Shown here in pieces: positions 21,420 to 36,070 of a stretch of 64,000 nt of DNA; positions within the stretch are counted from its first letter, which is position 1; every line of letters begins with the position of its first letter. Source of the DNA: a virus. Taxonomy: Duplodnaviria; Heunggongvirae; Uroviricota; Caudoviricetes. The translations under genes were made by a program, and so were the position numbers. The notes under the pieces are model-generated. The model was not told where the DNA came from. It was given only the letters and a program-made list of their open reading frames with translations, and searched no databases. The DNA is taken from positions 278,418 to 342,417 of the IMG/VR virus record IMGVR_UViG_3300009784_000001; one strand, 5' to 3'.

Positions 21420-21420
21420 A

Positions 21421-21543: not shown

Positions 21544-21602
21544 ACTTTCTACTATTTATTGAAATAAATATTGATTAATTATATTTTTTTAACATTTTAT
21601 AC

Positions 21603-21633
21603 TTTGAAATTAAAAAATAAATTTATATCTTTG
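21603..21633 (+). promoter_or_regulatory. Bacteroidota-type promoter of first tRNA cluster
   Basis: TTTG...TATCTTTG. Confidence 0.75.
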
Positions 21634-21742
21634 CAGTGTAATTCAAATGAATTAGTGTTGAAGTGATAACTGAGTAAGAACATGATACTTCAAATAAATG
21701 TAGTGAGAGATGTACAGCTTTATTCATTTTTTTAGATAAGGT

Positions 21743-21864
21743 TCCCCTGTAGCTCAGTTGGTTAGAGTACTTAAAATGAAGTTTTCTGGGTAGGAAATGT
21801 TCAGCAATATCAATCAAAATCGCTGTTAACGAAGGGGTCGGCAGTTCGAGTCTGTCCAGGGGTT
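21743..21864 (+). tRNA. tRNA-Asn(GTT)-like with 48-nt insertion in anticodon stem
   Basis: Normal D and T arms; removing 21773-21820 gives CTTCG-CTGTTAA-CGAAG. Confidence 0.75.
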
Positions 21865-21911
21865 CAAAGATTTCTTATTTAGATTAAAATAAGTGGCAGA
21901 GAAGAGGATTA

Positions 21912-21968
21912 AGAAAACATACAGCATTTTTTATCAATTCAACCATAGGAAAGAAAAAGTGTTTTCTG
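21912..21968 (+). ncRNA. CAGCA-stem RNA, copy C
   Basis: AGAAAACA-TACAGCA...TGTTTTCT-G. Confidence 0.6.
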
Positions 21969-22194
21969 AAATAAAAAGATAGGGTTCACTGAGTTAAAGT
22001 GAATAGTTCAATACCAAGGTGAGGGAAGTGTTGAATGATAATATAAGTCCTTACATGTAATATAACTACATATCTAACATGTTTTATATATAGTCATGAA
22101 TGTTATAAAACCTCTGGAACATTTTTTTTTATTAGGGTAGTTTTCATTGGATTAGACCCTGACTTTATGGTAAGTTATATTTACCTTAATTTAT

Positions 22195-22270
22195 TGGAAC
22201 TTAGCTCAGCTTGATTTAGAGCATCTGTTTTACAAGCAGAGGGCCGTGGGTTTAAATCCCCCAGTTCCAA
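22195..22270 (+). tRNA. tRNA-Val(TAC)
   Basis: Cloverleaf, TCTGT-TTTACAA-GCAGA. Confidence 0.9.
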
Positions 22271-22279
22271 CAATTAAAT

Positions 22280-22351
22280 CGGGGGATAGAGCAGTGGTAG
22301 CTCACCAGGCTCATAACCTGGAGGTCGAAGGTTCGATCCCTTCTCCCCCAA
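22280..22351 (+). tRNA. tRNA-Met(CAT), initiator-like C1:A72
   Basis: CCAGG-CTCATAA-CCTGG. Confidence 0.9.
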
Positions 22352-22355
22352 CAAT

Positions 22356-22484
22356 AGGAAAGGTACAGCAAATTGAATTAAAATTCTATTTACAATTTTA
22401 CTATGAGGAAGAGAGCTTTCATCTAAAATAGGTGGAAAACAACTCTCAAAGAAATGAGTACTTCTCTAAAAACTCTCTTTCCTG
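22356..22484 (+). ncRNA. CAGCA-stem RNA, copy D (long interior)
   Basis: AGGAAAG-GTACAGCAA...CTTTCCT-G. Confidence 0.55.
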
Positions 22485-22492
22485 ATATCATA

Positions 22493-22620
22493 AAATAAAT
22501 CTTTACATCAAGGTGTACATAAATCTGTATAGTGGTACAAATGAGGGGCAAAGGAGAAGAATTTGCGTAGTCCGCTTGGAGTATCGGGTAGCTATGGTTG
22601 GGAAAGGTAAAGATTTATTT
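22493..22620 (+). ncRNA. candidate structured RNA closed by a 14-bp stem
   Basis: AAATAAATCTTTAC/GTAAAGATTTATTT enclosing GC-richer core. Confidence 0.4.
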
Positions 22621-22636
22621 TTAATTTTTATATAAT

Positions 22637-23071
22637 ATGTTATATTCAATATTATTAACATTAGGATTATTAATTTTAGCTCATTTTATTGGAGATTGGA
22701 GTAAATTTGTTCCATTTCATCAAAAAGTAGTTAATGCAAAAGTTAATAAAACCAATACATCTGGAAATTGGATATTTTTACATTCAAGTATTGTATCTCT
22801 GTATAAAATATTTGCAATTTTAATTTCATCTTGGATTATTCCAATAGGAAATATGCCAGGTTTTTTGAATACAATATGGTTTTATATTATTCTTGTAGTA
22901 ATATTTTTTGGAGAACTAATAACACATTTTGTATTTGATATTTCTAAATGGTTTCTAAATAATAAATATAATCTGAATCCATCAAAAGATATTTATTGGA
23001 CTGTTGTTGGTATTGACCAAATGCTACATTATTTAGTAATGTTAGGAATGTTATATTTATTATATTGTTAA
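22637..23071 (+). CDS. DUF3307-like membrane protein
   Basis: LAHFIGD..H..THFVFD..GIDQMLH. Confidence 0.75.
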   Translation: MLYSILLTLGLLILAHFIGDWSKFVPFHQKVVNAKVNKTNTSGNWIFLHSSIVSLYKIFAILISSWIIPIGNMPGFLNTIWFYIILVVIFFGELITHFVFDISKWFLNNKYNLNPSKDIYWTVVGIDQMLHYLVMLGMLYLLYC

Positions 23072-23079
23072 TTTTATAT

Positions 23080-23165
23080 GGCTATGTGGCGTAATTGGGA
23101 GCCGCAGGGGACTTAAAATCCCCTCTCCTGTAAAGGAGGTACAGGTTCAAGTCCTGTCATAGCTA
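23080..23165 (+). tRNA. tRNA-Leu(TAA)
   Basis: GGGGA-CTTAAAA-TCCCC, long variable arm. Confidence 0.92.
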
Positions 23166-23168
23166 CGA

Positions 23169-23289
23169 TGAGAATTAGCTCAGTTGGTAGAGCAAAGGTA
23201 TTATAAAAAGTTTCTTGAATAAGAAATGTTCAGCAATATTTAAAAATGGGAACTTTATGTCAGCAGTTCGAGCCTGCTATTCTCATCCA
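23169..23289 (+). tRNA. tRNA-like gene (TGG loop) with about 45-nt insertion in anticodon loop
   Basis: TGAGAAT/ATTCTCA-T-CCA, normal D/T arms, AAGGT/ACTTT stem. Confidence 0.7.
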
Positions 23290-23292
23290 CAT

Positions 23293-23366
23293 TTTCTGGT
23301 AGTTCAATTGAATAGAACCTTCGGCTTCTACCCGAAAAGTTGGGAGTTTGAATCTCCCCCAGAAAG
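23293..23366 (+). tRNA. tRNA-Arg(TCT)
   Basis: TTCGG-CTTCTAC-CCGAA. Confidence 0.88.
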
Positions 23367-23383
23367 CAAAATAAATAGAAAAA

Positions 23384-23614
23384 ATGAGTAGTTGTATTAA
23401 TAGATTAGATGATGAATTAGATGACCAGCAATGGAAAGAAATGGTATTAAAATGGAATGGTTTCAAATTTAAAGTAATTGATGAATTAAATGAAGTTAAA
23501 ATTAAGAATAAATATGATACCAAAGAAGTTGAAGAATGGAAATTTTTATTTAATAATAAATCCAAAATATTAGCGAATAGAGAATTGATTAACTTATTAA
23601 AAAATTGGGAATGA
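23384..23614 (+). CDS. hypothetical protein
   Basis: ORF track. Confidence 0.55.
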   Translation: MSSCINRLDDELDDQQWKEMVLKWNGFKFKVIDELNEVKIKNKYDTKEVEEWKFLFNNKSKILANRELINLLKNWE

Positions 23615-23823
23615 ATATAAAGGTAAAAGAATTAATAAGTAAATTACAATTATTTAATCCAGAAGCCGAAGTTGATATTCTATTTAATAATCAACCTTAT
23701 CCTTTGGAAATATATGGTTGGAATTGTGGTGGAGATAATAATTATTCTTCAACTGAATCTAAACAAAAAGCTATTTCAGTATCATTAGGTGGGATTGGGT
23801 TAAATGATAGTGAAAGAATGTAA
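23605..23823 (+). CDS. hypothetical protein
   Basis: ORF track. Confidence 0.55.
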   Translation: MGMNIKVKELISKLQLFNPEAEVDILFNNQPYPLEIYGWNCGGDNNYSSTESKQKAISVSLGGIGLNDSERM

Positions 23824-24159
23824 ATGAAAAGTAAATTTGAATGTAGAGATAAAGTATCATATAATACATTTGAAGAAGCAAATAAAGTATTATCAGTATG
23901 GGATAAAAAGAAAAATAATAGTGAACAATATGCTTATTCTTGTAAAGAATGTGGAAAGATACATATTACCAGTAGAAAGAAACATCTAAATAAAGTAAAA
24001 CCAATTAAATATAAGGAAATTGGATTTACAAATGAGGATAGAAAAAAATGGGGTGGTAGTCGTTCAGTTAAAGAGCAAAAAGAACTTGTAGAAGTATTGT
24101 ATAAAGGAAGAGAAAATAAAAGAGTTACTTTTGGAGATTTATTAAAAAAAGAATATTAA
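23824..24159 (+). CDS. hypothetical Zn-finger protein
   Basis: AYSCKECGKIHIT. Confidence 0.6.
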   Translation: MKSKFECRDKVSYNTFEEANKVLSVWDKKKNNSEQYAYSCKECGKIHITSRKKHLNKVKPIKYKEIGFTNEDRKKWGGSRSVKEQKELVEVLYKGRENKRVTFGDLLKKEY

Positions 24160-24179
24160 GTTTTTTTAATACAAAATAT

Positions 24180-24210
24180 TTTGGTAACTCAAAAATAATT
24201 CTTATCTTTG
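24180..24210 (+). promoter_or_regulatory. Bacteroidota-type promoter
   Basis: TTTG...TATCTTTG. Confidence 0.75.
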
Positions 24211-24231
24211 TAGTGTTATTTGAAATTATAA

Positions 24232-24419
24232 CGAGAGGTAGCTTAATGGCAGAGCGCAGTCGGAATGTAAAATTGCAATTTAATGTTCTTAAACAAGACT
24301 GAATGGTGTGCTGTGAAAGTTTGAAAAAAGTGAATACAAACTGAATGGGGTTGCAAACCTTGCAAGTTATGATGCTTGAAGTAGAATGAGTAATTGAGGT
24401 TCAATTCCCACCCTCTTGA
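24232..24419 (+). ncRNA. enlarged tRNA-like RNA (about 188 nt)
   Basis: CGAGAGG/CCTCTTG acceptor, D arm, CAGTC/GACTG stem, GGTTCAATTCC T loop. Confidence 0.65.
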
Positions 24420-24438
24420 CAAAAAAAATTAAATTGAT

Positions 24439-24705
24439 ATGAAAACATTAAGAGAAAGACAAATTGGTGAAAGATTTAAATATAGAAAAAATATAGTTGA
24501 AGTCAAATCTGTTATTTATAACAAATGTTTTTATTGTCAATTTAGAAATCAATCTAAATGGATTGTAATTCTAAATGGTTGTTATCAAGAAAAAAATATG
24601 TTTGATTCTTGTTCAAAGAAACATAATTGTTCAAGATATACCAGAAAGGATAAAAAAGATGTTTATTTCAAACTAGTCAAAAGACTTTATTTAGAAAGAA
24701 AATGA
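24439..24705 (+). CDS. hypothetical Cys-rich protein
   Basis: ORF track. Confidence 0.6.
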   Translation: MKTLRERQIGERFKYRKNIVEVKSVIYNKCFYCQFRNQSKWIVILNGCYQEKNMFDSCSKKHNCSRYTRKDKKDVYFKLVKRLYLERK

Positions 24706-25265
24706 TAGGTTCAAATAACACTGATAAGTTTAAGATATTCCAAATAAGATGGGCTGAAAAGTTGGGTTATAACGATAATCCATATTTAATAAGGTGGACA
24801 TTTATATTTTTTGGATATTCAATGAGAATACATCATTGGATTAAATCAGATGATAATAGATATTTTCATGATCATTCAAGTGATTTGTTAAGCATTGTAT
24901 TAAAAGGAAAATATACAAATGTTAAACCTCTTATGTGGAAGAAAAATTTACCTCCAACTCATTTATTTGAAGTTGAATTACCACCAGAATCTTCAATAAA
25001 GAGAAAGTTTATTTCAAATACTGTAGAGTATCCAGTTGAAGGTATTTTTAATTCTTGGAAAAATTTCTTCAATATGAAGAAATCAATATGGTTTTCAAAA
25101 GCAACTGAACAACATTACTTGAGTATTCCAAAAAAAGGTGCATGGACATTGTTATTTGAAGGAAAAGCATATCATAAGTGGGGATTTTATGTAAATCAAC
25201 ATAAATGGAGACCATTAAGATATTTCTCAAAGTTTGGTATAATACAAACAGAAAATTATCAATAA
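24702..25265 (+). CDS. cupin-like phage protein
   Basis: RIHHWIKSDD..FHDH..SIVLKGKY. Confidence 0.55.
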   Translation: MIGSNNTDKFKIFQIRWAEKLGYNDNPYLIRWTFIFFGYSMRIHHWIKSDDNRYFHDHSSDLLSIVLKGKYTNVKPLMWKKNLPPTHLFEVELPPESSIKRKFISNTVEYPVEGIFNSWKNFFNMKKSIWFSKATEQHYLSIPKKGAWTLLFEGKAYHKWGFYVNQHKWRPLRYFSKFGIIQTENYQ

Positions 25266-25281
25266 TTTTTAACATAAAAAA

Positions 25282-25313
25282 TTTGGTCATTAAAAATAAA
25301 ATTTGTATCTTTG
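25282..25313 (+). promoter_or_regulatory. Bacteroidota-type promoter
   Basis: TTTG...TATCTTTG. Confidence 0.75.
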
Positions 25314-25607
25314 CATTATAAATTATGTTTTATTGATAGATTCAGGTACTGAATATTGGCACTGTAAAATATAGTTTAGAGTAATAGGCAGTAAGTCATA
25401 TATCTATGAGTAGAGGGTAACGTTTGAAATTAGTATATACTCCTTTGAAAAAGTGCAATGACCTATTATTTTTTATTAAATATTGATAATTTTTTAAATA
25501 ATAGTATATTTATATTAAAAAACTTATAAATGGGTATTGAACCATAAATAAAAAGTAAAAACAAAAAAAGCAATGGGAACAGATGCTTAAAAAAAGAAAA
25601 AAAAGAA

Positions 25608-25739
25608 ATGAGAGAATTTAGTAAACATATTAATAATTTTGTTGAGGTTAGTTATAAACCCAATAGTAATTGTAATTCAAATGAAAAACCATTTGAAGAT
25701 GATAATAATTTGCTAAAAGGATTTTGTGTATATATGTAA
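25608..25739 (+). CDS. putative attenuator leader peptide 1 (Asn/Glu/Lys/Asp/Pro-rich, 43 aa)
   Basis: MREFSKHINNFVEVSYKPNSNCNSNEKPFEDDNNLLKGFCVYM. Confidence 0.7.
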   Translation: MREFSKHINNFVEVSYKPNSNCNSNEKPFEDDNNLLKGFCVYM

Positions 25740-25760
25740 CATTTACTCAAATATACGTTC

Positions 25761-25810
25761 CACAAACCCTGATAGCAAAATTAAAAAAGTTATCAGGGTT
25801 TTGTGTTTTT
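25761..25810 (+). terminator. attenuator terminator before tRNA operon 1
   Basis: CACAAACCCTGATAGC/GTTATCAGGGTTTTGTG + T run. Confidence 0.8.
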
Positions 25811-25817
25811 AATATAT

Positions 25818-25888
25818 GGCGCATTAGTTTAGTGGTAGAACAGGCGGTTTTCAGCCGAAGGAGAGGGTTTCGATTACCCTATGCGCTA
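25818..25888 (+). tRNA. tRNA-Glu(TTC), weak anticodon stem
   Basis: CGG-TTTTCAG-CCG. Confidence 0.75.
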
Positions 25889-25895
25889 CAAATAT

Positions 25896-25968
25896 GTACC
25901 TGTGGCAGAGTGGTTTATGCACTTGACTGTTAATCAAGACTACGAAGGTTCGATCCCTTCTGGGTACG
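25896..25968 (+). tRNA. tRNA-Asn(GTT)
   Basis: CTTGA-CTGTTAA-TCAAG. Confidence 0.9.
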
Positions 25969-25975
25969 CAAAAAT

Positions 25976-26049
25976 AGAGAGTATAGCATAATCTGGTAAG
26001 TGTGCCTTCCAAGTGGGAAGGAGATGTGGTTCAAATCCAATACTTTCTG
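25976..26049 (+). tRNA. atypical tRNA-like gene (loop CAAGTGG, nominal AGT)
   Basis: 8-bp acceptor, CCTTC/GAAGG stem, GGTTCAAATCC; lacks U33. Confidence 0.55.
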
Positions 26050-26056
26050 CAAAAAT

Positions 26057-26128
26057 AGTCTATTGGTCCAGCGGTTAGGATGCCAGATTGTCAATCTGGT
26101 GGCGAGGGTTCAACTCCCTTATAGACTG
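26057..26128 (+). tRNA. tRNA-Asp(GTC)
   Basis: CCAGA-TTGTCAA-TCTGG. Confidence 0.9.
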
Positions 26129-26134
26129 CTATTT

Positions 26135-26207
26135 CTGGGTGTAATTCAGTAGGAAGAATGCTTGGTTTGGGACCAAGATGTCGGGAGTTCGAGCCTCTCT
26201 ACTCAGA
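26135..26207 (+). tRNA. tRNA-Pro(TGG)
   Basis: CTTGG-TTTGGGA-CCAAG. Confidence 0.9.
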
Positions 26208-26214
26208 CAAAATT

Positions 26215-26290
26215 CGGATAGTAGGGAAGCTCGGTCGTTCCCGCCTGCCCTGGACGCAGGAGATCATAGGTTCAAATCCTGTTTATCCGA
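26215..26290 (+). tRNA. tRNA-Pro(TGG), C33 variant
   Basis: CCTGC-CCTGGAC-GCAGG; C1-G72, A73. Confidence 0.8.
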
Positions 26291-26427
26291 CTATAATTAA
26301 AAAAGTTAAAGGGACTTTGAAAAGAATTATAAGTGAAAATAATATGAGTAATAAATTAAAAATAAAACGAAAATGTAGCTGACCTCACAGTTAATATGGG
26401 CTGTGAGGTTGGGAATAAGGATATTAC

Positions 26428-26500
26428 TCCCTCATAGCTCAATGGTTTAGAGCTTCTGTCTTTTAAACAGAAGAACCAGGTCCGATTCCTGGTGGGGGAA
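26428..26500 (+). tRNA. tRNA-Lys(TTT)
   Basis: TCTGT-CTTTTAA-ACAGA. Confidence 0.9.
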
Positions 26501-26518
26501 CTATAAAAATAAAAAAAA

Positions 26519-26740
26519 ATGTTTTGGGATAACAAAAATAAATGTAAGAAGTATTGTATAGGTTGTAAATTTGCAAGTGAATTTAATAATAATTTTTATT
26601 GTGTTAATGAACTTGGTGAATATATTGTTGCAACAAAAAATCAAGTTTTAGTATCATTGGGATATACAGCTTTACATATATGTAGAGGTTTATTAATAAA
26701 GAAAAATTGCCCATTTTTTGAAAAAGATAGAAAATTATGA
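26519..26740 (+). CDS. hypothetical Cys-rich protein
   Basis: ORF track. Confidence 0.55.
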   Translation: MFWDNKNKCKKYCIGCKFASEFNNNFYCVNELGEYIVATKNQVLVSLGYTALHICRGLLIKKNCPFFEKDRKL

Positions 26741-26985
26741 AAGAAATTAGTATTAAAGATGTAATTGATAATAGTAAAAGAGCTAAATTAACTCATGCTA
26801 TTGCAGGGAGATTGTATTATAGGGTAGATGATATAGAAAGAAATACTACATATCAATTTTGTGTAGATATGAATGATAAAGAAGATGTTGGTTCAACTAC
26901 ATTTATTGTAGATGAAAAAGCTATTCTTTTAATGAGATATATTAGAAAATCAAAAGATTCTGGTGATTTAATTCAAATTAAATAG
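26737..26985 (+). CDS. hypothetical phage protein
   Basis: ORF track. Confidence 0.6.
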   Translation: MKEISIKDVIDNSKRAKLTHAIAGRLYYRVDDIERNTTYQFCVDMNDKEDVGSTTFIVDEKAILLMRYIRKSKDSGDLIQIK

Positions 26986-26989
26986 CATA

Positions 26990-27181
26990 ATGAGTTTTAT
27001 TTATGAAATAAAAAATTTAGAGAAAATAAAAGAAGAAGGTAGTATTTACATTCAATGCCCATGTTGCCAAGAAAGTTTTGATTATTATCTAGATAAATAT
27101 GAATTAGATATTTTGAATAAAGAAGAGGACATTTATTGTAAGTGTATAGAATGTGGTAATTCTTTCTATCTTTCTTTGTAG
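26990..27181 (+). CDS. small Zn-ribbon protein
   Basis: CPCC..CIECG. Confidence 0.6.
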   Translation: MSFIYEIKNLEKIKEEGSIYIQCPCCQESFDYYLDKYELDILNKEEDIYCKCIECGNSFYLSL

Positions 27182-27312
27182 ATTATCAAAAAGTGATAAA
27201 AATCATTTTATGTATTGTAAAAGATGAAAAGAATAAATTTGGTATATTCAATAATAATTTGTACTTTTGCGATATAATTATCTATTTATAGATACAACAA
27301 AAAAGTATAAAA

Positions 27313-27648
27313 ATGAAAAAAAGAATTATTATTTTATTATCATTATTTTTCATAATGAACATAAGTCAAGCAGCTATTTATAAAACAAAAAGTGAAAGTG
27401 ATGTAATTGAGAATAGTACAGGTTTATTTGGAGAAAAAAAAGTAGAGAAAATTGAAAATACAGAAGATAATTATGGTGGATTATTCAGAGCATCAGATCC
27501 AGGTGGAAGACCAGGGAATGGTGATGGAATTGGTCAGCAAGCACCATTAGGTGATGGATTAAAAATATTACTTATACTTTGTTTTTTCTTTCTTCTTTAT
27601 GAATTTTCTACAAACAAAAAAATTAACATAAAAAATTTGGATAATTAA
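27313..27648 (+). CDS. secreted protein with C-terminal sorting-like motif
   Basis: Signal peptide; QAPLGDGLKILL + TM + basic tail. Confidence 0.6.
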   Translation: MKKRIIILLSLFFIMNISQAAIYKTKSESDVIENSTGLFGEKKVEKIENTEDNYGGLFRASDPGGRPGNGDGIGQQAPLGDGLKILLILCFFFLLYEFSTNKKINIKNLDN

Positions 27649-27667
27649 AAAATAAATTGTAATTTTG
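27636..27667 (+). promoter_or_regulatory. Bacteroidota-type promoter
   Basis: TTTG...TAATTTTG. Confidence 0.65.
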
Positions 27668-27704
27668 TAGAGTAATAAGATATTTATAAGATATAAAAAT
27701 AGAT

Positions 27705-27782
27705 CGTGGTGTGGAGGAGTCTGGCTTTCCTCATCTGGCTCATAACCAGAATGTCACATGGGTTCAAATCCCATCACCGCAA
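27705..27782 (+). tRNA. tRNA-Met(CAT), initiator-like C1:A72
   Basis: TCTGG-CTCATAA-CCAGA. Confidence 0.88.
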
Positions 27783-27787
27783 CAAAT

Positions 27788-27841
27788 AGAAAACATACAG
27801 CATTTTTTCAATTTTCAATGGGAGAAAAAAAGTGTTTTCTG
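27788..27841 (+). ncRNA. CAGCA-stem RNA, copy E
   Basis: AGAAAACA-TACAGCA..TTTTC-AATGGGA-GAAAA..TGTTTTCT-G. Confidence 0.65.
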
Positions 27842-27850
27842 AAAAAAATA

Positions 27851-27932
27851 AGGAAAGATACAGCAATGTTAAATGGTTAAAAGAAAATTCTGTAAAAATT
27901 TTTTGAAAAGGTTCAAATCCTATTCTTTCCTG
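27851..27932 (+). ncRNA. CAGCA-stem RNA, copy F, tRNA-Tyr(GTA)-like
   Basis: AGGAAAG-ATACAGCAA, AAAATT-CTGTAAA-AATTTT, AGG-TTCAAAT-CCT, CTTTCCT-G. Confidence 0.7.
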
Positions 27933-27968
27933 TAAATTTGAAAAGTTAAATTAAAAAAAATAGAAAAA

Positions 27969-28079
27969 ATGAAACAAATTAGTAGTACATATTGTCTTGG
28001 AAGTTCATCAGCGATTAGTTTTGCTGGTACAACATCCTTTTGTACTTATCATTTTTATGATAATTTTGTTTCAAGTTAA
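27969..28079 (+). CDS. putative attenuator leader peptide 2 (Ser/Thr/Phe/Tyr/Cys/Ala-rich, 36 aa)
   Basis: MKQISSTYCLGSSSAISFAGTTSFCTYHFYDNFVSS. Confidence 0.8.
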   Translation: MKQISSTYCLGSSSAISFAGTTSFCTYHFYDNFVSS

Positions 28080-28108
28080 AAAAAGAATTACCTTAACCTG
28101 GCAAGGAT

Positions 28109-28153
28109 AAACCTGAAACAAATCTATAAAAAAGAAAAGTTTCAGGTTTTTTT
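28109..28153 (+). terminator. attenuator terminator before tRNA operon 2
   Basis: AAACCTGAAAC/GTTTCAGGTTT + T run. Confidence 0.8.
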
Positions 28154-28162
28154 AATTTATAT

Positions 28163-28247
28163 GGAAAGTAAACCTATAAGGTGTAGGAACCGCCTGCTAA
28201 GCGAGTTGTACAATTAAATGTATGTGAATCGTGTTCACTGCTCTCCG
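28163..28247 (+). tRNA. tRNA-Ser(GCT), non-canonical T arm
   Basis: CGC-CTGCTAA-GCG, long variable arm, G73. Confidence 0.75.
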
Positions 28248-28288
28248 CAAAAGTTCTTTGAAATTGTTGGTTAATTATAAATTATTAT

Positions 28289-28371
28289 GGATTAGTTGGG
28301 TAGTGGCAATCCCAAGACACTGTAACTGTCTCGCCTTCGGGCTTTCGCTGGTTCGAGTCCAGCCTAATCCA
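28289..28371 (+). tRNA. tRNA-Tyr(GTA)
   Basis: AGACA-CTGTAAC-TGTCT. Confidence 0.92.
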
Positions 28372-28412
28372 CATAAAAATATTTTTCTTAATAACTATAC
28401 TTTTTTAGTTCG

Positions 28413-29384
28413 ATGCGATATTTATATATAAATGTAAATATTATGATAAAGGAACGAGAAGAATTAATTATTAAAATAATAAAAGAGAGTAATAGTATTT
28501 CAGAGGTTTGTAAAAAGTTAAATATATCTGTTACTAATGGTAATTATATAACAATAAAAAAAATAATAAAAAACAATAATTTAGATATATCTCATTTTAA
28601 AAGAGTTTCACAAAATTCTAATAAAAAGCGATATACGTTACAAGAAATTATGGTTGAAAATTCATCATACACCAATGTAAATAAATTAAAGAAAAGATTA
28701 ATTAAAGAAGGGATTAAGGAAAATAAATGTGAAATATGTGGAATAAGTAAATGGAATGGAGAACAAATTTCTTTACAATTGCATCATAAAAATGGTATCA
28801 CAAGTGATAATAGAATAGAAAATTTACAAGTACTTTGTCCCAATTGTCATTCTCAAACACATAACTATGGTGGGAAAAATATAGATAATAAAATAAGAGA
28901 AGATAGATTTTGCAGAATATGTGAGAAAAAGTTAAACGATACACAAAAAAAGTATTGTTCAATCAATTGCTATAATAAAAGTATTGATGATAATATTCCA
29001 ACTAAAAACAAAATCTTATCTTATATAAAAAATTATACAACACTTGTAGAATTATGTAAAAAAGAAAAAATTGATAGAGGGACATTTAGAAATTGGTGTA
29101 ATAAAAGACAATGTATAGATGATGTAAATTTTTTGTTGAAAAAAAATTTTGAAATAAAAATTTTAAATATTGAAGTTAAGAATGATTTATATGAAAAAAG
29201 ATGTGAATTAATAAATAAATTTAAAAAATTTGGGTCATTCTTACAAGTAGGTAAATATTATGGAGTATCCGATAATATGATAAGAAAAAGATGTAAAAAA
29301 ATTGGTTTACCTGTTCATACAAAAGAAATGATAAAATTAATAAATTCGGAAGAATGTCAGAGTGCTTTATTGTACAACTCTTGA
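28413..29384 (+). CDS. HNH homing endonuclease with HTH repeats
   Basis: CEICG..LQLHHKNG..DNRIENLQVLCPNCH. Confidence 0.85.
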   Translation: MRYLYINVNIMIKEREELIIKIIKESNSISEVCKKLNISVTNGNYITIKKIIKNNNLDISHFKRVSQNSNKKRYTLQEIMVENSSYTNVNKLKKRLIKEGIKENKCEICGISKWNGEQISLQLHHKNGITSDNRIENLQVLCPNCHSQTHNYGGKNIDNKIREDRFCRICEKKLNDTQKKYCSINCYNKSIDDNIPTKNKILSYIKNYTTLVELCKKEKIDRGTFRNWCNKRQCIDDVNFLLKKNFEIKILNIEVKNDLYEKRCELINKFKKFGSFLQVGKYYGVSDNMIRKRCKKIGLPVHTKEMIKLINSEECQSALLYNS

Positions 29385-29432
29385 AAAGTTGTGAACTTTC
29401 GAGTTCCGTAGGTTGGAATCCTACTTCTTCCG
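29348..29432 (+). tRNA. tRNA-Ser(TGA)
   Basis: CAACT-CTTGAAA-AGTTG. Confidence 0.9.
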
Positions 29433-29443
29433 CAAGATAATAA

Positions 29444-29516
29444 GGGATAGTAACATAGAAGTTTATGTGCTGGTCTGAAAAACCAGAAATGCTTGAGGCG
29501 GTATCAGCCTATCCCA
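29444..29516 (+). tRNA. tRNA-Phe(GAA), non-canonical T loop
   Basis: CTGGT-CTGAAAA-ACCAG. Confidence 0.8.
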
Positions 29517-29526
29517 CAAATTAAAT

Positions 29527-29612
29527 GCTTCAATGGGGGAATTGCTAGACCCGCTTGATTTAGGCTCAAGTTTCTGGGAACAGAAGTGTAGGTTGGATTC
29601 CTACTTGAAGTA
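29527..29612 (+). tRNA. tRNA-Leu(TAG)
   Basis: CTTGA-TTTAGGC-TCAAG. Confidence 0.9.
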
Positions 29613-29618
29613 CAATAT

Positions 29619-29690
29619 GTTCAGTTGCCAGAGTGATAATGGGGTAGACTGCAAATCTATTTTTCGTTGGTTTGAATCCAACACTGAATT
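29619..29690 (+). tRNA. tRNA-Cys(GCA)
   Basis: GTAGA-CTGCAAA-TCTAT, U73. Confidence 0.9.
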
Positions 29691-29702
29691 CAAAAAATAA
29701 AT

Positions 29703-29773
29703 GCTGTGTTAGTATAAGAGTATTACATTGGCTTTGTAACCCAAAAATGGGGATGCGATTTCCTCACACAGCT
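29703..29773 (+). tRNA. tRNA-Thr(TGT)
   Basis: TTGGC-TTTGTAA-CCCAA. Confidence 0.82.
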
Positions 29774-29782
29774 CTAAATTAA

Positions 29783-29854
29783 GGGCTTATCATATAATAG
29801 CTATTATGCCACCCCTGCAAGGTGGTTATTGGAGTGCAATTCTCCATAGGTCCA
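29783..29854 (+). tRNA. tRNA-Ala(TGC)
   Basis: G3.U70; CCACC-CCTGCAA-GGTGG. Confidence 0.85.
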
Positions 29855-29883
29855 CTTATTTAGCATTTATTAACTTGAATAAT

Positions 29884-29914
29884 TTTGATATTAGATAATA
29901 TTTTCTTATCTTTG
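29884..29914 (+). promoter_or_regulatory. Bacteroidota-type promoter
   Basis: TTTG...TATCTTTG. Confidence 0.7.
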
Positions 29915-29933
29915 TATCATTAAAATAAATGGT

Positions 29934-30548
29934 ATGAAAAAGATAGAATTAGTTTATAATAATTTAGATATTAATAATTTACCAGGTGAAATATGGGTAG
30001 ATGCTTATGATTTTGATGGTTATTATGAAGTATCCAATATGGGGAGGATAAAAACTTGTGAAAGAGAAGTCAGTAATGGAGTTGGGACAAGAATAGTAAT
30101 TAGTAAAATTAGGAAACAGGTTTTAGGTAAAGATGATAGATTAACTTGTCCCTTTACTATAAATAATGAAAGTATATCTATAAATGTTTCAAGGTTAATC
30201 TTTCAATCTTTTAACCCCACTAAGATTTTAGATAATTTAGTGGTTTCACATAGAAATAGATGTAAATGTGATAATAGATTGAATAATTTAAAAGTGGAAA
30301 CATTACAAAACAATCATTTTGATAATGTTCATAAGTATAATTATGGCTTAAAAGAACATTTGTTAAAACTGAATAAAATTAAACATGAAAAATTTGTCAA
30401 TACAATAAAAAGCAAAGTTTGTAATAAATGTGGAATAGAAAAAGATATAATAGAATTTGTATATAAAAGAGAAGGAAAAAGAGATGAAAATAGAAATATA
30501 TGTAAAATGTGTAGAAATAAACGTGAAAGAAATAGAATTAAAAAATGA
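29934..30548 (+). CDS. NUMOD4-HNH endonuclease
   Basis: EIWVD..YEVSNMGRIK; VSHRNRCKCDNRLNNL. Confidence 0.8.
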   Translation: MKKIELVYNNLDINNLPGEIWVDAYDFDGYYEVSNMGRIKTCEREVSNGVGTRIVISKIRKQVLGKDDRLTCPFTINNESISINVSRLIFQSFNPTKILDNLVVSHRNRCKCDNRLNNLKVETLQNNHFDNVHKYNYGLKEHLLKLNKIKHEKFVNTIKSKVCNKCGIEKDIIEFVYKREGKRDENRNICKMCRNKRERNRIKK

Positions 30549-30967
30549 GTTATAAAGATTTTTTTCAAAAACCAGAGTTTGATTTGGATGAAGTAGAAGA
30601 AAAAAGAGTAAATGCTTTGAAACCAGATGAAAATGGTGATTTAATGGAAAATGGTGATTATATTTTTCAGGATAGAGCAATTCATAATCAACAAGGTAAT
30701 ACAATTCAGCGTTCTTTTACAACTGTAAAGGGAGTTAGAGTAATGGAAGATACTTACATACCCTGGTCATGCTTTCAACCAATGAGGATGACTTTTGTGG
30801 TAGATTTGACATTGCCTGATGATACATTACCAACAACTGAAACAAGTTGGATGCAAAATTGGTATGAGCCTGAAGGATTTGCTCATCCTGCATTTGTAAA
30901 TTTTGAAGATGTTGTTGAATTTATAATTAAATGGAGAAAAAGTAACCCTAAAGTGGTTAATAATTAA
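30545..30967 (+). CDS. hypothetical protein
   Basis: ORF track. Confidence 0.6.
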   Translation: MSYKDFFQKPEFDLDEVEEKRVNALKPDENGDLMENGDYIFQDRAIHNQQGNTIQRSFTTVKGVRVMEDTYIPWSCFQPMRMTFVVDLTLPDDTLPTTETSWMQNWYEPEGFAHPAFVNFEDVVEFIIKWRKSNPKVVNN

Positions 30968-30975
30968 ATAAAAAT

Positions 30976-31048
30976 GTTCAGTTCTTCTAATGGTTTAGGA
31001 AGCAAGACTGATATTCTTGTAATATAAGTTCGATTCTTATACTGAACA
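30976..31048 (+). tRNA. tRNA-Ile(GAT)
   Basis: CAAGA-CTGATAT-TCTTG. Confidence 0.88.
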
Positions 31049-31050
31049 CT

Positions 31051-31128
31051 GTGTGGGTAGCTAATATTGGTTAAGGCACTAGATTGTGGCTCTAGGTTTT
31101 TATGGGGGTTCGATTCCCCTCTCACACC
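31051..31128 (+). tRNA. tRNA-His(GTG)
   Basis: CTAGA-TTGTGGC-TCTAG, C73. Confidence 0.9.
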
Positions 31129-31142
31129 AAAAATAAGAAAGT

Positions 31143-31173
31143 TTTGTTATTTAAAAAATTATTCATATCTTTG
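31143..31173 (+). promoter_or_regulatory. Bacteroidota-type promoter
   Basis: TTTG...TATCTTTG. Confidence 0.7.
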
Positions 31174-31193
31174 TATTGTAAATTAAATAAGAT

Positions 31194-31700
31194 ATGAAAA
31201 AAATCAGAAAATTTGTATTTGAAACAAACAGTTCAAGTTCTCATTCTATTACATTAGGTGATTTAGATTCATTTAGAAAAGATAGATATGGATTAAAATC
31301 TTGTATAGATGAAAATAACAATCTTGTATTAAAAGGTGGTGAATTTGGTTGGTATTTAGAAGATGATGAGGGTGCTGAAACAAAAGTAAATTATGTTGCA
31401 GTAGCTTTAACTTATTATTATGAAGCTGCGAAAGACAATGAAGAAAATTATTATGGTTTTACATTAGATGAAATCAATAATATTATTGAATTATTTAAAG
31501 AAGTTTTGAGAGAAGAAACAGATGCAGAAGTTGTTTTCAATTTTAAAGTAGGTTGGGAAGATTCTTACATTGATCATCAATCTATTGATATGATTGCAGA
31601 TGAAATTAAAGGTAAAAATGATTCAGAATTGAAAGAATTTTTCTATAATTTCATTTTTAATGAAAATTCAATATTAATAATTGATAATGATAATCATTAA
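31194..31700 (+). CDS. acidic phage protein with FETNSSS motif
   Basis: MKKIRKFVFETNSSSSHS. Confidence 0.7.
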   Translation: MKKIRKFVFETNSSSSHSITLGDLDSFRKDRYGLKSCIDENNNLVLKGGEFGWYLEDDEGAETKVNYVAVALTYYYEAAKDNEENYYGFTLDEINNIIELFKEVLREETDAEVVFNFKVGWEDSYIDHQSIDMIADEIKGKNDSELKEFFYNFIFNENSILIIDNDNH

Positions 31701-31899
31701 TTATGAATGAAGATAGTGGAGTTAGTTGTGGATGTGGTTGTTTTTCTTTTAGTATAGGTTGGGGGACTATTATTGCTGTAATATTAAGTTGAATGAAATG
31801 GCATTCAATTGGATGGGTAATTATTCATGGGTTATTAGGATGGTTATATGTAATATATTATATTGCAAAATATGTGTTATTAAATTAAAAATATATAAT

Positions 31900-32340
31900 A
31901 TGAAAAAAATTAGAATTAGTGTTTTTGAAACGAATAGTTCCAGCACTCATAGTCTTACAATTGTATCAAAAGAAGATTTTGAGAAGTGGAAAAAAGGTGA
32001 ATTTATTTTTGACAGAAGTAATGATGAATTAGTTCCTGTTAAAGAGAAGCAATATACAGAAGAAGATTATTTAAATTATCTTAAAGATAAAGCCAAAAAA
32101 GTTGCAAATGGATATATTTTTAGAGATGTTTATTATAAAAATCTAGATGAAATATTATCATTAAATCTTATTTCTAATGATGAAATGAATGAATATTTAG
32201 AAGATGAAGGATATGATTATGATTTTCAAACTTATAAAGATTGGGAAAATGATGAATATCTTGAAACATTTCAATATTCACATACTACTCCAAGTGGAGA
32301 TGAAATTGTGGTTTTTGGTAGATATGGTTATGATGGATAA
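31900..32340 (+). CDS. second FETNSSS-motif protein
   Basis: MKKIRISVFETNSSSTHS; ATG 31900 chosen by homology to the paralog. Confidence 0.7.
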   Translation: MKKIRISVFETNSSSTHSLTIVSKEDFEKWKKGEFIFDRSNDELVPVKEKQYTEEDYLNYLKDKAKKVANGYIFRDVYYKNLDEILSLNLISNDEMNEYLEDEGYDYDFQTYKDWENDEYLETFQYSHTTPSGDEIVVFGRYGYDG

Positions 32341-32488
32341 TATATGATTTCGATAATACAACAAAAAAATATAATAAAAGAATTTATTGATTATCTACCT
32401 TTTTCTGTTCTAACAAATGAACATTCTAGGTATAAAAAGGAAATAAGTTTATATGATTATCTTGAAGAATATATTAAAAAATTAAGAG

Positions 32489-33430
32489 ATGGAGATATTG
32501 AAATCATACAAAAATGGTAATGTTGAAATTACATTATATGATAATGGAACGAGGGTAATGGAATATGATGAAACTAAACCATTATTATTTGATTATCCTA
32601 CATCTATGGATATTAAAATTACTAATTATTGTGAAGGCGGAAAGATAACCAAGAATGGTGATTTTAAATTGTGCCAATTTTGTCATGAGGAATCAAATAA
32701 AGATGGAAAACATGCTAATTTAATTGAATTAAGTAATATTTTATTTGATATTCCAGAAGGAGTTGAAATTGCACTAGGTGGAGGTAATCCATTATCACAT
32801 CCAAATTTAGTTGCTTTTTTATTAAGATGTAAAAAACAAGGTTTAATTCCTAATTTAACAGTTAATAAAAATCATCTTGTTTTTTATTATGATTTATTAA
32901 AAAATTTAATAGATAATAAATTAATTTATGGATTAGGCATATCAATTCCTACTTCTGTATGTGAATGGAATGAAAAAGAGTTATTTTTTGTAAATTATAA
33001 ACATTCAGTTGCTCATTTAATTATAGGATTGCATTCTACTAAAATAATAAATATTTTAAGAAAGATTGGTTTCAAAAAATTTTTATTATTGGGCTATAAA
33101 GAATTTGGAAGAGGTATAAAATATTATAATAGTCATTCTAATAAAATAAATGAAAATATTAAAGAATGGGAAAACAATATATTAAATATTCTAACTACTG
33201 CTAATGTAATTTCTTTTGATAATTTATCTATTAGTCAACTTAATTTACAATCTAAATTGCCTAAGAAATTGTGGGATAAATTTTATCAAGGAGATGATTT
33301 TAGTTCAACTTTGTATTTGGATGCTGTAACTAAACAGTTTGCTCCTACTTCAAGAAGCAATAAAAATGAAAGGGTAAATTGGAAAGATATAAGTTTATTA
33401 GATTATTTCAGAGATAATAGAAGAAAGTAA
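32489..33430 (+). CDS. radical SAM protein
   Basis: DIKITNYC-x13-CQFCHE, EIALGGGNP. Confidence 0.85.
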   Translation: MEILKSYKNGNVEITLYDNGTRVMEYDETKPLLFDYPTSMDIKITNYCEGGKITKNGDFKLCQFCHEESNKDGKHANLIELSNILFDIPEGVEIALGGGNPLSHPNLVAFLLRCKKQGLIPNLTVNKNHLVFYYDLLKNLIDNKLIYGLGISIPTSVCEWNEKELFFVNYKHSVAHLIIGLHSTKIINILRKIGFKKFLLLGYKEFGRGIKYYNSHSNKINENIKEWENNILNILTTANVISFDNLSISQLNLQSKLPKKLWDKFYQGDDFSSTLYLDAVTKQFAPTSRSNKNERVNWKDISLLDYFRDNRRK

Positions 33431-33457
33431 AAGTTAGATATTTATTATAAAAAAGTA

Positions 33458-34312
33458 ATGAAGAATTTAGATGAAATAAAGTTTTTATTTGAAAGAAAAG
33501 AAGAAGAGACTTTTCAAGAATATAGTGATAGAAAGGAAAAAGAACGAAGTGTATCAAGTAGTTGTAATCATAAGGGGGGGGGGATTCTTAATGAATCTGT
33601 TTCAAAAAAAAGTACTTCTGAAAGACCAAATTTTATTTCTGAAATAAAAGGTTCAACAACTAATACATGGTCTTTACATAGACTTGATGAGATGACTGTA
33701 CAAAGATTATTAGGAAAACATTCTAATAATGGTTATATAATTATATCAGCAAGTAGAGGAGTGGAAAATGAATGGAATGAACAACAGAAACAAGAACAAA
33801 GAAGATTGAATAATGAAAATTATCAAAAATTATTAGCTTCAATAAAAAATAGTGGCTTTTCTTTTATTCCTGTATATGGTGGATTTGTTGAAAATTTAGG
33901 AGAAGAAGATGAAAGACAGGTTTATGAAAAATCATTTATTGTTTTGAATTTTAATAGAAAAGGAAATGAAATGGATTTTAATGAACTTTATCAAAAAGGT
34001 TTAGAATGGACTGAAGAATTTGATCAAGATTCATTTTTATCAAAGGCTCCTGATTCAACACCAGAATATGTTGATAAAGGAGGAAATGTAACAATGAAGT
34101 TTGGTGGGGATATAAAAGTAAATGATTTAACTCAACAATATTTCACAGATTTCGTTAAGTCAAAACAATTAGGTCAAGAAACAAATACAAAGGGTGATTC
34201 AATGAGTAGAGAACACAGGATTACTTTTGAAGGAGTATTTATAAATCCTGAACCTGCTACTTTGAGTGAAAGAGTTGTAAGGGATTATTTAAATGAATTA
34301 TTTTTGAAATAA
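33458..34312 (+). CDS. putative SAM lyase (T3 SAMase-like)
   Basis: YIIISASR..GGFVE..EKSFIV..EFDQDSFL. Confidence 0.65.
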   Translation: MKNLDEIKFLFERKEEETFQEYSDRKEKERSVSSSCNHKGGGILNESVSKKSTSERPNFISEIKGSTTNTWSLHRLDEMTVQRLLGKHSNNGYIIISASRGVENEWNEQQKQEQRRLNNENYQKLLASIKNSGFSFIPVYGGFVENLGEEDERQVYEKSFIVLNFNRKGNEMDFNELYQKGLEWTEEFDQDSFLSKAPDSTPEYVDKGGNVTMKFGGDIKVNDLTQQYFTDFVKSKQLGQETNTKGDSMSREHRITFEGVFINPEPATLSERVVRDYLNELFLK

Positions 34313-34333
34313 TGTGATATTTATATAAATAAA

Positions 34334-34426
34334 ATGAAAAAAAATACAAACATATTATTAGTTGGGCAACAAGGTTGGCAACAATTTGGACAAGGCTGTG
34401 GCAATGTTCCTGATAATGGTATGTAA
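34334..34426 (+). CDS. putative attenuator leader peptide 3 (Gly/Gln/Trp-rich, 30 aa)
   Basis: MKKNTNILLVGQQGWQQFGQGCGNVPDNGM. Confidence 0.85.
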   Translation: MKKNTNILLVGQQGWQQFGQGCGNVPDNGM

Positions 34427-34460
34427 GTATATAAGGATAACCTTCGCAAATGGTGGCTCT

Positions 34461-34497
34461 GGCTTACATTACTATTAAAAGTATGTAAGCCTTTTTT
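34461..34497 (+). terminator. attenuator terminator before tRNA operon 3
   Basis: GGCTTACAT/ATGTAAGCC + TTTTTT. Confidence 0.85.
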
Positions 34498-34504
34498 AAT
34501 TTAT

Positions 34505-34576
34505 AGATTAGTGGTATAATGGTTATTACACATCGCTTTGAACGATGGAATTCCTGTTCAATTCAGGACTAATCTA
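34505..34576 (+). tRNA. tRNA-Gln(TTG)
   Basis: CATCG-CTTTGAA-CGATG. Confidence 0.88.
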
Positions 34577-34690
34577 CATCATATCAATGGCAATAGATAT
34601 GATAATAGAATAGAAAATTTACAAATACTTTGTCCTAATTGTCATTCTCAAACTGATAGTTATGCAGGAAAAAGTAGTAGAAAAAAATAA
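34574..34690 (+). pseudogene. HNH endonuclease remnant abutting tRNA-Gln
   Basis: LHHINGNRYDNRIENLQILCPNCHSQTDSYAGKSSRKK*. Confidence 0.8.
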
Positions 34691-34693
34691 AAT

Positions 34694-34765
34694 GCGTCAT
34701 TCGTATAGTGCTTATTATGCGACTCTTCCAAAGTCAGGACATCGGTTGGATTCCGATATGGCGCA
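34694..34765 (+). tRNA. tRNA-Gly(TCC)
   Basis: GACT-CTTCCAA-AGTC. Confidence 0.88.
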
Positions 34766-34775
34766 CAAAATATAT

Positions 34776-34846
34776 ACGTGTTTGGTGTAATGGTAGCATA
34801 ACTCCCTCCAAATGAGTTGGTTAGGGTTCGAGTCCTTAAATACGTG
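34776..34846 (+). tRNA. tRNA-Trp(CCA)
   Basis: ACTCC-CTCCAAA-TGAGT, G73. Confidence 0.88.
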
Positions 34847-34908
34847 CTTACTTTGAAATGTTAAATAATCTAAAATTTTTATATTATCTAATTTATTAAC
34901 ATTTTCTA

Positions 34909-34940
34909 TTTGTATAATAGAAAAAATTATCTTATCTTTG
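34909..34940 (+). promoter_or_regulatory. Bacteroidota-type promoter
   Basis: TTTG...TATCTTTG. Confidence 0.75.
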
Positions 34941-34975
34941 TTCCATAATTAATAACAATTTAAATTTTTAATAAT

Positions 34976-36070
34976 ATGGCACATAATTTAGAGAACAGAG
35001 AGGGAGAATACAGTTTTGTAAGTGCAGCTTCACAACCTGCTTGGCATAATCTTGGTAAAGTTTTTAATAAACCTAATTTGACAATTGAGGAAGCTATTAA
35101 TGAAGTAAGAGCTAATTATAATGTAAGAAAAGATTATCTGTTACGAATTACTAATGAAGATATTGAAAGAATTAAGAATGGTTTACCATTGAATGAAGTT
35201 TTTGATATGAAAGATATTATCAAAACTCACCAATGTACTGTTCGTGAAGATTTGAATAATGTTTTAGGAGTTGTTGGAAGTGGTTATGAAGTAGTTCAAA
35301 ATCTTCAAGGATTTGAATTTGTTCAGGATATTTTGAATGGAATTGAAGGAAATGTTGGGAATAATAAGCCTTATATTCAAACTGCTGGTGTATTAGGAAA
35401 TGGTGAAAGAATTTTTGTTAGTGCAAAATTTCAAAATCCTGTTAAAATTAAAGGAAGTGATGATATAATTGAAGATTACATTTTGTTTACCAATGCACAT
35501 GATGGCTCAGGTGCTGTAATTGCTACTTTTACTCCAACAAGAGTTGTTTGTAATAATACTTTGAATATGGCATTGTCAGGAGCTAAAAATAAAATTTATT
35601 TTAAGCATACAAAGAATGTTCATGGTAAATTGGATTTGAAAAATACAGATAATTTGAATATGGCTTTGAGTGTATTAAGAGGACATCAAGTATATATTGA
35701 AACTTTAACTTCACAGTTAGCAAAATTGGAAGATATTAAATTGAATGAAAATGATGTTAAAAGAATTGTTGCTGGTACATTTTTAGAGCCTGCTCAAGTA
35801 AAAGAATTTGTTCAAAATCAGTATAATCTTGATAAATTGGATATTTCTACAAAAAGTAAAAATAATATTGAAAATATGTTACATACAATAGATTGTGGTG
35901 TTGGGCAAACCATGTGGAGAGGGACTGGATTATGGGTTATTAATGGTTTCACTACTTATTATCAAAATAATAAAAGTTATAAGACTGAAGAAAAGAAATT
36001 TGATAGTATTATGGACGGTGATGCTTTCAAGAAAGTTCAAAGAGCATATGATTTAGTAAATGCTTATTGA
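34976..36070 (+). CDS. DUF932/DUF945-family phage protein
   Basis: MAHNL..PAWHNLG..YEVVQN..NAHDGSG..TPTRVVCNNTL. Confidence 0.85.
   Translation: MAHNLENREGEYSFVSAASQPAWHNLGKVFNKPNLTIEEAINEVRANYNVRKDYLLRITNEDIERIKNGLPLNEVFDMKDIIKTHQCTVREDLNNVLGVVGSGYEVVQNLQGFEFVQDILNGIEGNVGNNKPYIQTAGVLGNGERIFVSAKFQNPVKIKGSDDIIEDYILFTNAHDGSGAVIATFTPTRVVCNNTLNMALSGAKNKIYFKHTKNVHGKLDLKNTDNLNMALSVLRGHQVYIETLTSQLAKLEDIKLNENDVKRIVAGTFLEPAQVKEFVQNQYNLDKLDISTKSKNNIENMLHTIDCGVGQTMWRGTGLWVINGFTTYYQNNKSYKTEEKKFDSIMDGDAFKKVQRAYDLVNAY

Follow-up and report, generated by a model that had tools for sequence, protein, structure and literature searches.

Putative ribosome-mediated attenuators ahead of three tRNA gene blocks in a large phage genome

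Why would a phage place a short open reading frame (ORF) and an intrinsic terminator immediately ahead of its own tRNA genes? The question is raised by a 64,000-nucleotide (nt) stretch of the IMG/VR virus record IMGVR_UViG_3300009784_000001 (positions 278,418 to 342,417; hereafter the window, whose own numbering is used throughout), where this arrangement occurs three times. Judged from folding models and comparisons between phages, it is very probable that the three units are transcription attenuators of the ribosome-mediated (trp/ilv) type, with tRNA genes as their output.

Three units and their codon match

Each of the three short ORFs is followed by an intrinsic terminator and then by a tRNA block. 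The features are listed below, all on the plus strand; L018 and L013 are contigs with orthologs of units 1 and 3, respectively.

25506–25514 (+): putative phage-type promoter motif RTATTTATW before leader 1, kept in L018
25530–25547 (+): mini-ORF MGIEP* in the 5' untranslated region (UTR) of unit 1, identical in L018
25573–25590 (+): mini-ORF MGTDA* in the 5' UTR of unit 1, identical in L018
25608–25739 (+): leader ORF 1, 43 amino acids (aa), with a putative sensing stretch at about codons 17–31 that is rich in K/P/N/E/D
25709–25737 (+): antiterminator strand 1, predicted by folding to pair with 25755–25779
25761–25810 (+): intrinsic terminator 1 with U tract (hairpin 25761–25805, -20.1 kcal/mol)
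25818–26501 (+): tRNA block A, with Glu-UUC, Asn-GUU, an odd tRNA (25976), Asp-GUC, two Pro-UGG and Lys-UUU
27969–28079 (+): leader ORF 2, 36 aa, with S/T/F/Y/C/A/L plus I/H
28065–28077 (+): antiterminator strand 2, predicted by folding to pair with 28110–28122
28109–28153 (+): intrinsic terminator 2 with U tract (hairpin 28109–28149, -13.7 kcal/mol)
28163–29854 (+): tRNA block B, with Ser-GCU, Tyr-GUA, the HNH gene, Ser-UGA, Phe-GAA, Leu-UAG, Cys-GCA, Thr-UGU and Ala-UGC
28413–29384 (+): HNH endonuclease gene inserted in block B (Pfam HNH matches)
30976–31128 (+): tRNAs Ile-GAU and His-GUG, probably the distal part of block B
34317–34325 (+): putative phage-type promoter motif before leader 3, identical in L013
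34334–34426 (+): leader ORF 3, 30 aa, with the core GQQGWQQFGQG, which is also present in L013
34410–34428 (+): predicted antiterminator strand 3, forming 17 pairs with 34462–34481 and also pairing with 34344–34370 in the untranslated leader
34461–34497 (+): intrinsic terminator 3 with U tract (hairpin 34461–34491, -13.3 kcal/mol)
34505–34847 (+): tRNA block C, with Gln-UUG, an HNH remnant (34578–34690), Gly-UCC and Trp-CCA

The terminator hairpins begin 21–34 nt past the stop codon of the short ORF, and the tRNA blocks start 13–14 nt after the hairpin with its U tract. tRNA identities are based on ARAGORN, Rfam and our own anticodon calls. A blind pipeline that combined a tRNA with an upstream hairpin bearing a U run and a short ORF returned only these three units from the 15 kb at 21001–36000, and the layout was found in the very places where the original prediction had put it.

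Leader composition was tested with the phage proteome as the expectation. Leader 2 contains 25 cognate residues among 35 (12.4 expected, P=1.5e-5) and leader 3 contains 12 among 29 (3.0 expected, P=1.3e-5). For these two leaders the claim that each is enriched in the residues of the tRNAs behind it stands (P around 1e-5), while for leader 1 it is weak, the match there being confined to codons 17–31 (11/15, P=0.002, for a segment chosen after the geometry had been seen). The cognate fractions of leaders 2, 3 and 1 are reached by 14, 2 and 7 of the 881 short ORFs of the genome, the leaders included. For leader 3, Q/G/W scores highest among the 1140 three-residue sets, and when the 20 amino acids were partitioned at random 100,000 times, the joint score of the three leaders was never matched.

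Three corrections apply to the block contents given in the original prediction. Block B probably reaches the Ile and His tRNAs, because leader 2 has two Ile codons and one His codon; no strong terminator was seen between 28149 and 31128, and with Ile and His counted, 25 of the 29 residues of the leader 2 core are cognate. The match for Leu is a single codon, CTT, which is read by the Leu-UAG of block B and is, as one codon, weak evidence; the main Leu codon is TTA (4545 of 7059). Finally, leader 1 has no Thr codon, though the odd tRNA of block A was called Thr. This tRNA-like gene (25976–26050) has a perfect anticodon stem and a CAAGTGG loop that lacks U33, giving the call Thr-AGU; a shifted reading gives a Gly-UCC-type loop on a poor stem. 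It is possibly a decoy or a degenerate tRNA.

Some further features of the units can be placed here. Both five-codon mini-ORFs of unit 1 have an A-rich start context and contain cognate residues (E, P, D), and they are unchanged in L018 although the start of leader 1 itself varies; ribosome loading or extra sensing are possible roles. The HNH endonuclease remnant between tRNA-Gln and tRNA-Gly of block C is absent from L013. Unusual anticodon loops occur in the second Pro tRNA (CCUGGAC, 26135–26291), Tyr (CUGUAAC, 28289–28372), Ala (CCUGCAA, 29783–29854) and Glu (UUUUCAG, 25818–25889), as would be expected under selection against anticodon nucleases.

A predicted switch and its conservation

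For folding, the RNA was cut before the 3' arm of the terminator, and the footprint of the ribosome was taken to end 10 nt beyond the A-site codon. The predicted complementarity between the leader 3' ends and the terminator 5' arms was recovered at -13 to -16 kcal/mol: the duplex of the leader 3' end with the 5' arm and loop of the terminator has energies of -15.9, -13.3 and -16.2 kcal/mol in units 1, 2 and 3, values that 25, 16 and 2 of 4000 34-mers drawn at random from the genome also reach. In the simulations the terminator 5' arm is sequestered to 0.73–0.85 as long as the A site is within the cognate stretch. The leader pairing falls from about codons 31–32 of 43 in leader 1, 30–31 of 36 in leader 2 and 26–27 of 30 in leader 3, switch points that lie just past the cognate stretch, and with the ribosome at the stop codon the pairing of the 5' arm to the leader is 0.00 (measured against the leader alone). 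The attenuator geometry first proposed thus holds in position-resolved folding, pairing being lost only when the ribosome passes the cognate stretch. Masking at the stop codon is likewise reproduced, but the statement that the tRNAs would then stay off was too strong in view of the internal promoter motifs described below.

The antiterminator strands reach into the terminator loops, parts that the terminators themselves do not need. Folding prediction and conservation together indicate that the antiterminator would exclude the terminator and could form first. The A-rich start context of the leaders is consistent with translation, and in a small sample of ten ordinary terminators, nine are separated from the stop codon by over 12 nt, as expected with coupling.

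Ortholog comparison covers units 1 and 3. In L013, which comes from another termite-gut assembly, unit 3 is found in the same gene order. Its terminator has two double-sided compensatory changes relative to the window, and its antiterminator pairs are kept with a shifted bulge, the pair 34415:34476 having changed from A-U to G-C; this pair sits in the terminator loop and matters only to the antiterminator. The spacer has diverged while both helices are kept, and the tRNA genes differ in sequence yet are still Gln-UUG, Gly-GCC and Trp-CCA, with a Gly-UCC remnant beside Gly-GCC. A third variant, represented by one contig of depth 3 that was seen in two runs (X3/X4), has 12 of its 13 listed substitutions and 3 indels in the spacer and none of those listed in the leader; its T34473C change turns an antiterminator G-U pair into G-C. 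For unit 1, L018 keeps the promoter motif, the 5' UTR and leader 1, whose reading frame and start context are conserved behind a different upstream gene; the contig ends at the leader 1 stop codon. The leader 1 ortholog P0018 is 73% identical, with codons 16–39 the same except for Ser20 to Asn, and with variation in codons 7–15. Metagenome scans with leaders 1 and 2 turned up no ortholog, and no tRNA block followed the match in any of the 11 contigs that fitted the back-translated leader 3 pattern. Scans of viral contigs for the neighbouring genes yielded nothing of use apart from L001, an unrelated phage with tRNAs, in which inspection showed no such unit.

A broader comparison is provided by 13 large records with capsid proteins 80–93% identical to that of the window phage, eight of which carry tRNA arrays. 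In a blind search, the same layout was found nine times in six of these eight. Covariation between leader and tRNA content, named in advance as the finding whose absence would speak against attenuation, is therefore present. In G004 and G005 the amino acids E/R/Q/Y/P/L/H/G are set apart from F/D/T/V/N/A/S/K/W/I. In G007, leader a carries F/G/M/A/Y/D/P/R/S/H/V/I/L/W, and leader b has an E/R/Q/C core ahead of tRNAs for Glu, Glu, Arg, Arg, Gln, Gln and Cys, while G002, G003 and G008 each use one broad leader for almost the whole array. Cognate residues make up 30/30 of the core in G004b (P=6e-7), 14/21 in G007b (P=3e-7) and 22/26 in G004a (P=6e-5), and 17/20, 30/34, 28/30 and 31/34 in G005a, G005b, G007a and G003, respectively. 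With one of each sister pair used, the true assignment of leaders to blocks is the single best of 40,320. Between the sisters, a Cys codon and a Cys tRNA are both present in G004b and both absent from G005b. The leader peptides of the relatives are unrelated in sequence between phages, the switch falls at a like codon position, and RTATTTATW lies 30–75 nt upstream of most leaders.

Alternative genetic codes were checked for the relatives and are not needed. Their arrays include suppressor-type tRNAs, with anticodon UCA in G003 (L103, 5566–5638) and CUA in G004, G005 and G007 (L105, L108, L114), as well as tmRNA genes. The UCA tRNA heads the G003 block, and the G003 leader has a Trp codon.

Promoter motifs and genomic surroundings

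RTATTTATW occurs upstream of 35 of 241 long ORFs, compared with 16 of 3775 internal windows. Because a copy also stands before tRNA-Met at 27705, with no ORF behind it, the motif is read here as a putative phage-sigma promoter. Blocks A and C contain no internal promoter motif. A sigma-70 promoter scan gave results at chance level only, and all three terminators were missed. Two sigma-70 region-2 proteins are encoded in the genome, one of them at 6848–7537 of the window, and this protein is a candidate reader of the motif; no RNA polymerase beta subunit was found when the phage genome was searched for one. The two sigma-type proteins and the missing polymerase subunit count in favour of the attenuation reading. 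The genome also encodes a CCA-adding-type enzyme.

The virus record is complete: it spans 359,943 bp, has direct terminal repeats and a GC content of 26%, and carries a major capsid gene of T4-like type. It represents a jumbo phage, probably of Bacteroidota type, and termite-gut metagenomes, in which the sequence is present, may be its source. Genes are preceded by TAnnTTTG motifs more often than expected (42 of 241, against 181 of 3775 internal windows), which, with the known promoter consensus, points to a host among the Bacteroidota. The best phage matches of neighbouring proteins are crAss-like and Lak phages; a close cultured relative was sought and none found, the best capsid match being 43%.

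Several neighbouring features were noted. Six structured RNAs share an [A/T]CAGCA motif (21745–21868, 21914–21970, 22355–22425, 23169–23288, 27790–27845 and 27850–27935); two are tRNA-shaped with a long insert in the anticodon arm, and two lie directly upstream of leader 2. We take them to resemble Y-RNA-like elements; Ro60/TROVE was considered as a partner of the tRNA-like RNAs and rejected, as its gene is not in the genome. A further tRNA-shaped RNA of about 190 nt with a long insert (24232–24422) has no Rfam match at gathering score. An ORF of 111 aa (27313–27648) has a signal-peptide-like start and a C-terminal PLGDG motif together with a hydrophobic stretch, presumably like a Bacteroidota sorting signal, and no NCBIfam match above cut-off. 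Two related ORFs that start with an ETNSSS motif (31194–31700 and 31900–32340, the second with relatives in Lak phages) are followed by a radical-SAM gene (32489–33430); in L013 the unit is preceded by four ORFs of like size and a radical-SAM gene. The gene directly upstream of leader 3 (33458–34312) has relatives with Pfam PF23780 S-AdoMet lyase matches, and its product is possibly an anti-restriction or anti-defence enzyme.

Alternatives, trigger and known systems

Several observations weigh against attenuation. Leader 1 taken whole is weak on its own (20/42 cognate, 14.4 expected, P=0.05), and of its two Asp codons just one, Asp31, falls in the switching zone. No leader accompanies the tRNAs for Val, Met, Leu-UAA and Arg-UCU (22195–23367), Met (27705) and Arg-ACG (51097), and a search for a fourth leader, for the Val/Met/Leu/Arg tRNAs, was negative. 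Among the relatives, no unit was found in G001 or G006, nor before the K/L/I/T/N/M block of G007; nothing can be read from the pan-amino-acid leaders in G002 and G008 (P=0.5 and 0.17), and the tRNA sets rest partly on our own anticodon calls. In full-length equilibrium folding, terminators 1 and 2 win at every ribosome position and only unit 3 switches thermodynamically, so the switch in units 1 and 2 must be kinetic, that is, set by folding order, on which attenuators usually rely. Finally, there are promoter motifs inside block B, one of phage type at 28418 (HNH gene) and one of host type near 29907 (about 29884–29914), and a host-type motif lies between terminator and tRNAs in six of the nine related units. 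It is possible that the HNH motif bypasses gate 2, the motif at 29907 can also drive the Ile and His tRNAs, and distal block B may be made without the gate. Given these motifs, the switch would gate one transcript and not all synthesis; most likely what it controls is extra tRNA, made from the phage-sigma transcript, beyond a supply that is ungated.

One alternative is that the same switch works chiefly as a general gauge of how fast translation runs or how far infection has gone: whenever ribosomes slow late in infection, all gates would open, the codon match only tuning them. This would suit the single broad leaders of G002, G003 and G008, and also leaders 1 and 2, whose antiterminators form at equilibrium without a ribosome (0.77 and 0.76), so that loss of translation could open them. 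Disjoint, block-matched leaders such as those here and in G004, G005 and G007 would, however, be needless for a gauge, and the untranslated leader 3 hides its own antiterminator, which is formed to only 0.09 without a ribosome; unit 3 therefore needs a stalled ribosome, not an absent one. Its predicted 1:2 protector helix, in which the 5' part of the leader pairs with the antiterminator strand, is matched by 8 of 1000 random pieces, compared with 312 and 136 of 1000, no better than chance, for units 1 and 2, and the outcome in related phages is mixed; tested as a general feature, the helix holds for unit 3 only. On balance a general gauge is unlikely. Less probable again is that the terminators act constitutively, or that a phage antitermination protein overrides them, and that the short ORFs code for small proteins or act as leaders in tRNA processing, their residue content being a coincidence. 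Antiterminator proteins are common in phages, and internal promoters could supply tRNAs without any switch, but the codon match (0/100,000 partitions), the covariation across phages (1/40,320) and the compensatory conservation of the helix between leader and terminator loop would all go unexplained, and the leader peptides have no match in NCBIfam and show no relationship from one phage to another. That AT-rich DNA yields short ORFs and hairpins before tRNA clusters by chance is scarcely credible: a 26% GC genome with 881 short ORFs offers the material, and leader 1 alone is marginal, but the duplex, partition, assignment and compensatory-change tests oppose it, leader 1 is kept as an ORF with its start context in L018 despite the differing upstream gene, and recurrence in six related phages contradicts it.

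Attenuation, the preferred reading, would connect the observed layout, codon match, alternative helices, and their conservation and covariation as follows; the promoter, leader translation, its coupling to transcription, the switch in vivo and its trigger are what we infer. The leader would be transcribed by host RNA polymerase, most likely directed to RTATTTATW by a phage sigma factor, and a ribosome would follow. When all cognate codons are read fast, the ribosome would cover the leader 3' end, the terminator would form, and transcription would stop about 14 nt before the first tRNA. Should any one cognate tRNA run short, through cleavage, lack of charging or competition from late phage translation, the ribosome would pause in the sensing stretch, the free leader 3' end would pair with the 5' arm and loop of the terminator, and the tRNA block would be transcribed. 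The new tRNAs would speed leader reading again, giving negative feedback for each amino-acid group.

Cleavage, starvation and high demand would all look alike to such a switch. Extra tRNA is no remedy for a lack of amino acids, and the condition that could be repaired is therefore presumably tRNA loss or shortage, whether through cleavage by host defence or through heavy late demand. An anticodon-nuclease trigger is plausible, and we suggest tentatively that the panel of attenuators reports which tRNA groups are cleaved by host defence and switches on the matching replacements. If so, this would be an inducible counter-defence, and leader sequences would predict the tRNAs at risk in each host. 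The gates would also offer a direct readout of which tRNAs become limiting, when, and against which defence, and could be used as compact genetic sensors of tRNase activity.

For more than 50 years it has been asked why phages carry tRNA genes, with codon compensation and replacement of tRNAs lost to host defence as the proposed answers (PMC10264068). Since the gates would open only when specific codons are read slowly, the phage would be treating tRNA shortage as a conditional event that is measured, which favours replacement. Phage tRNAs rescue infection from tRNA-cleaving systems (PMC11555353; PMC12409363; PMC10264068). The arrays described here are alike in being able to replace host tRNAs lost in infection, and this is a likely reason for them. 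In PMC11555353, rescue is attributed to a strong phage tRNA promoter and the string 'attenuat' does not occur; in the passages covered of PMC10264068 and PMC12409363, nothing is said of tRNA loss being sensed. Attenuation of tRNA genes, whether of phages or of hosts, was described nowhere in the literature covered, which was incomplete.

T-box riboswitches of Gram-positive bacteria also set a choice between terminator and antiterminator, according to the status of a specific tRNA (PMC4695836). They differ in binding the uncharged tRNA directly, with no ribosome, and no T-box match from Rfam was found in the window, the only matches being to RF00005. The pheM-pheST system of E. coli is alike in applying leader-peptide attenuation to the translation machinery, with feedback on charged tRNA, but it is chromosomal and controls phenylalanyl-tRNA synthetase for one amino acid, where the output here is tRNA genes. 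The closest parallels are the attenuators of enterobacterial amino-acid operons, which include trpL, hisL, leuL and pheL and the multivalent thrL (Thr/Ile) and ilvL (Ile/Leu/Val). With the thrL/ilvL type the units share a short leader ORF with control codons, overlapping antiterminator and terminator, a decision that is predicted to be set by ribosome position, and several amino acids per leader. They differ in that the regulated genes are phage-encoded tRNAs and not the biosynthetic enzymes or synthetases found behind trpL, thrL, ilvL and pheM, in that 3 to at least 14 amino acids are covered per leader by control codons that are scattered rather than tandem, and in that several gates divide the tRNA set, with a protector or pause helix clear only in unit 3. 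Ribosome-mediated attenuation would thereby be extended to a new output, tRNA genes, and to a closed feedback loop.

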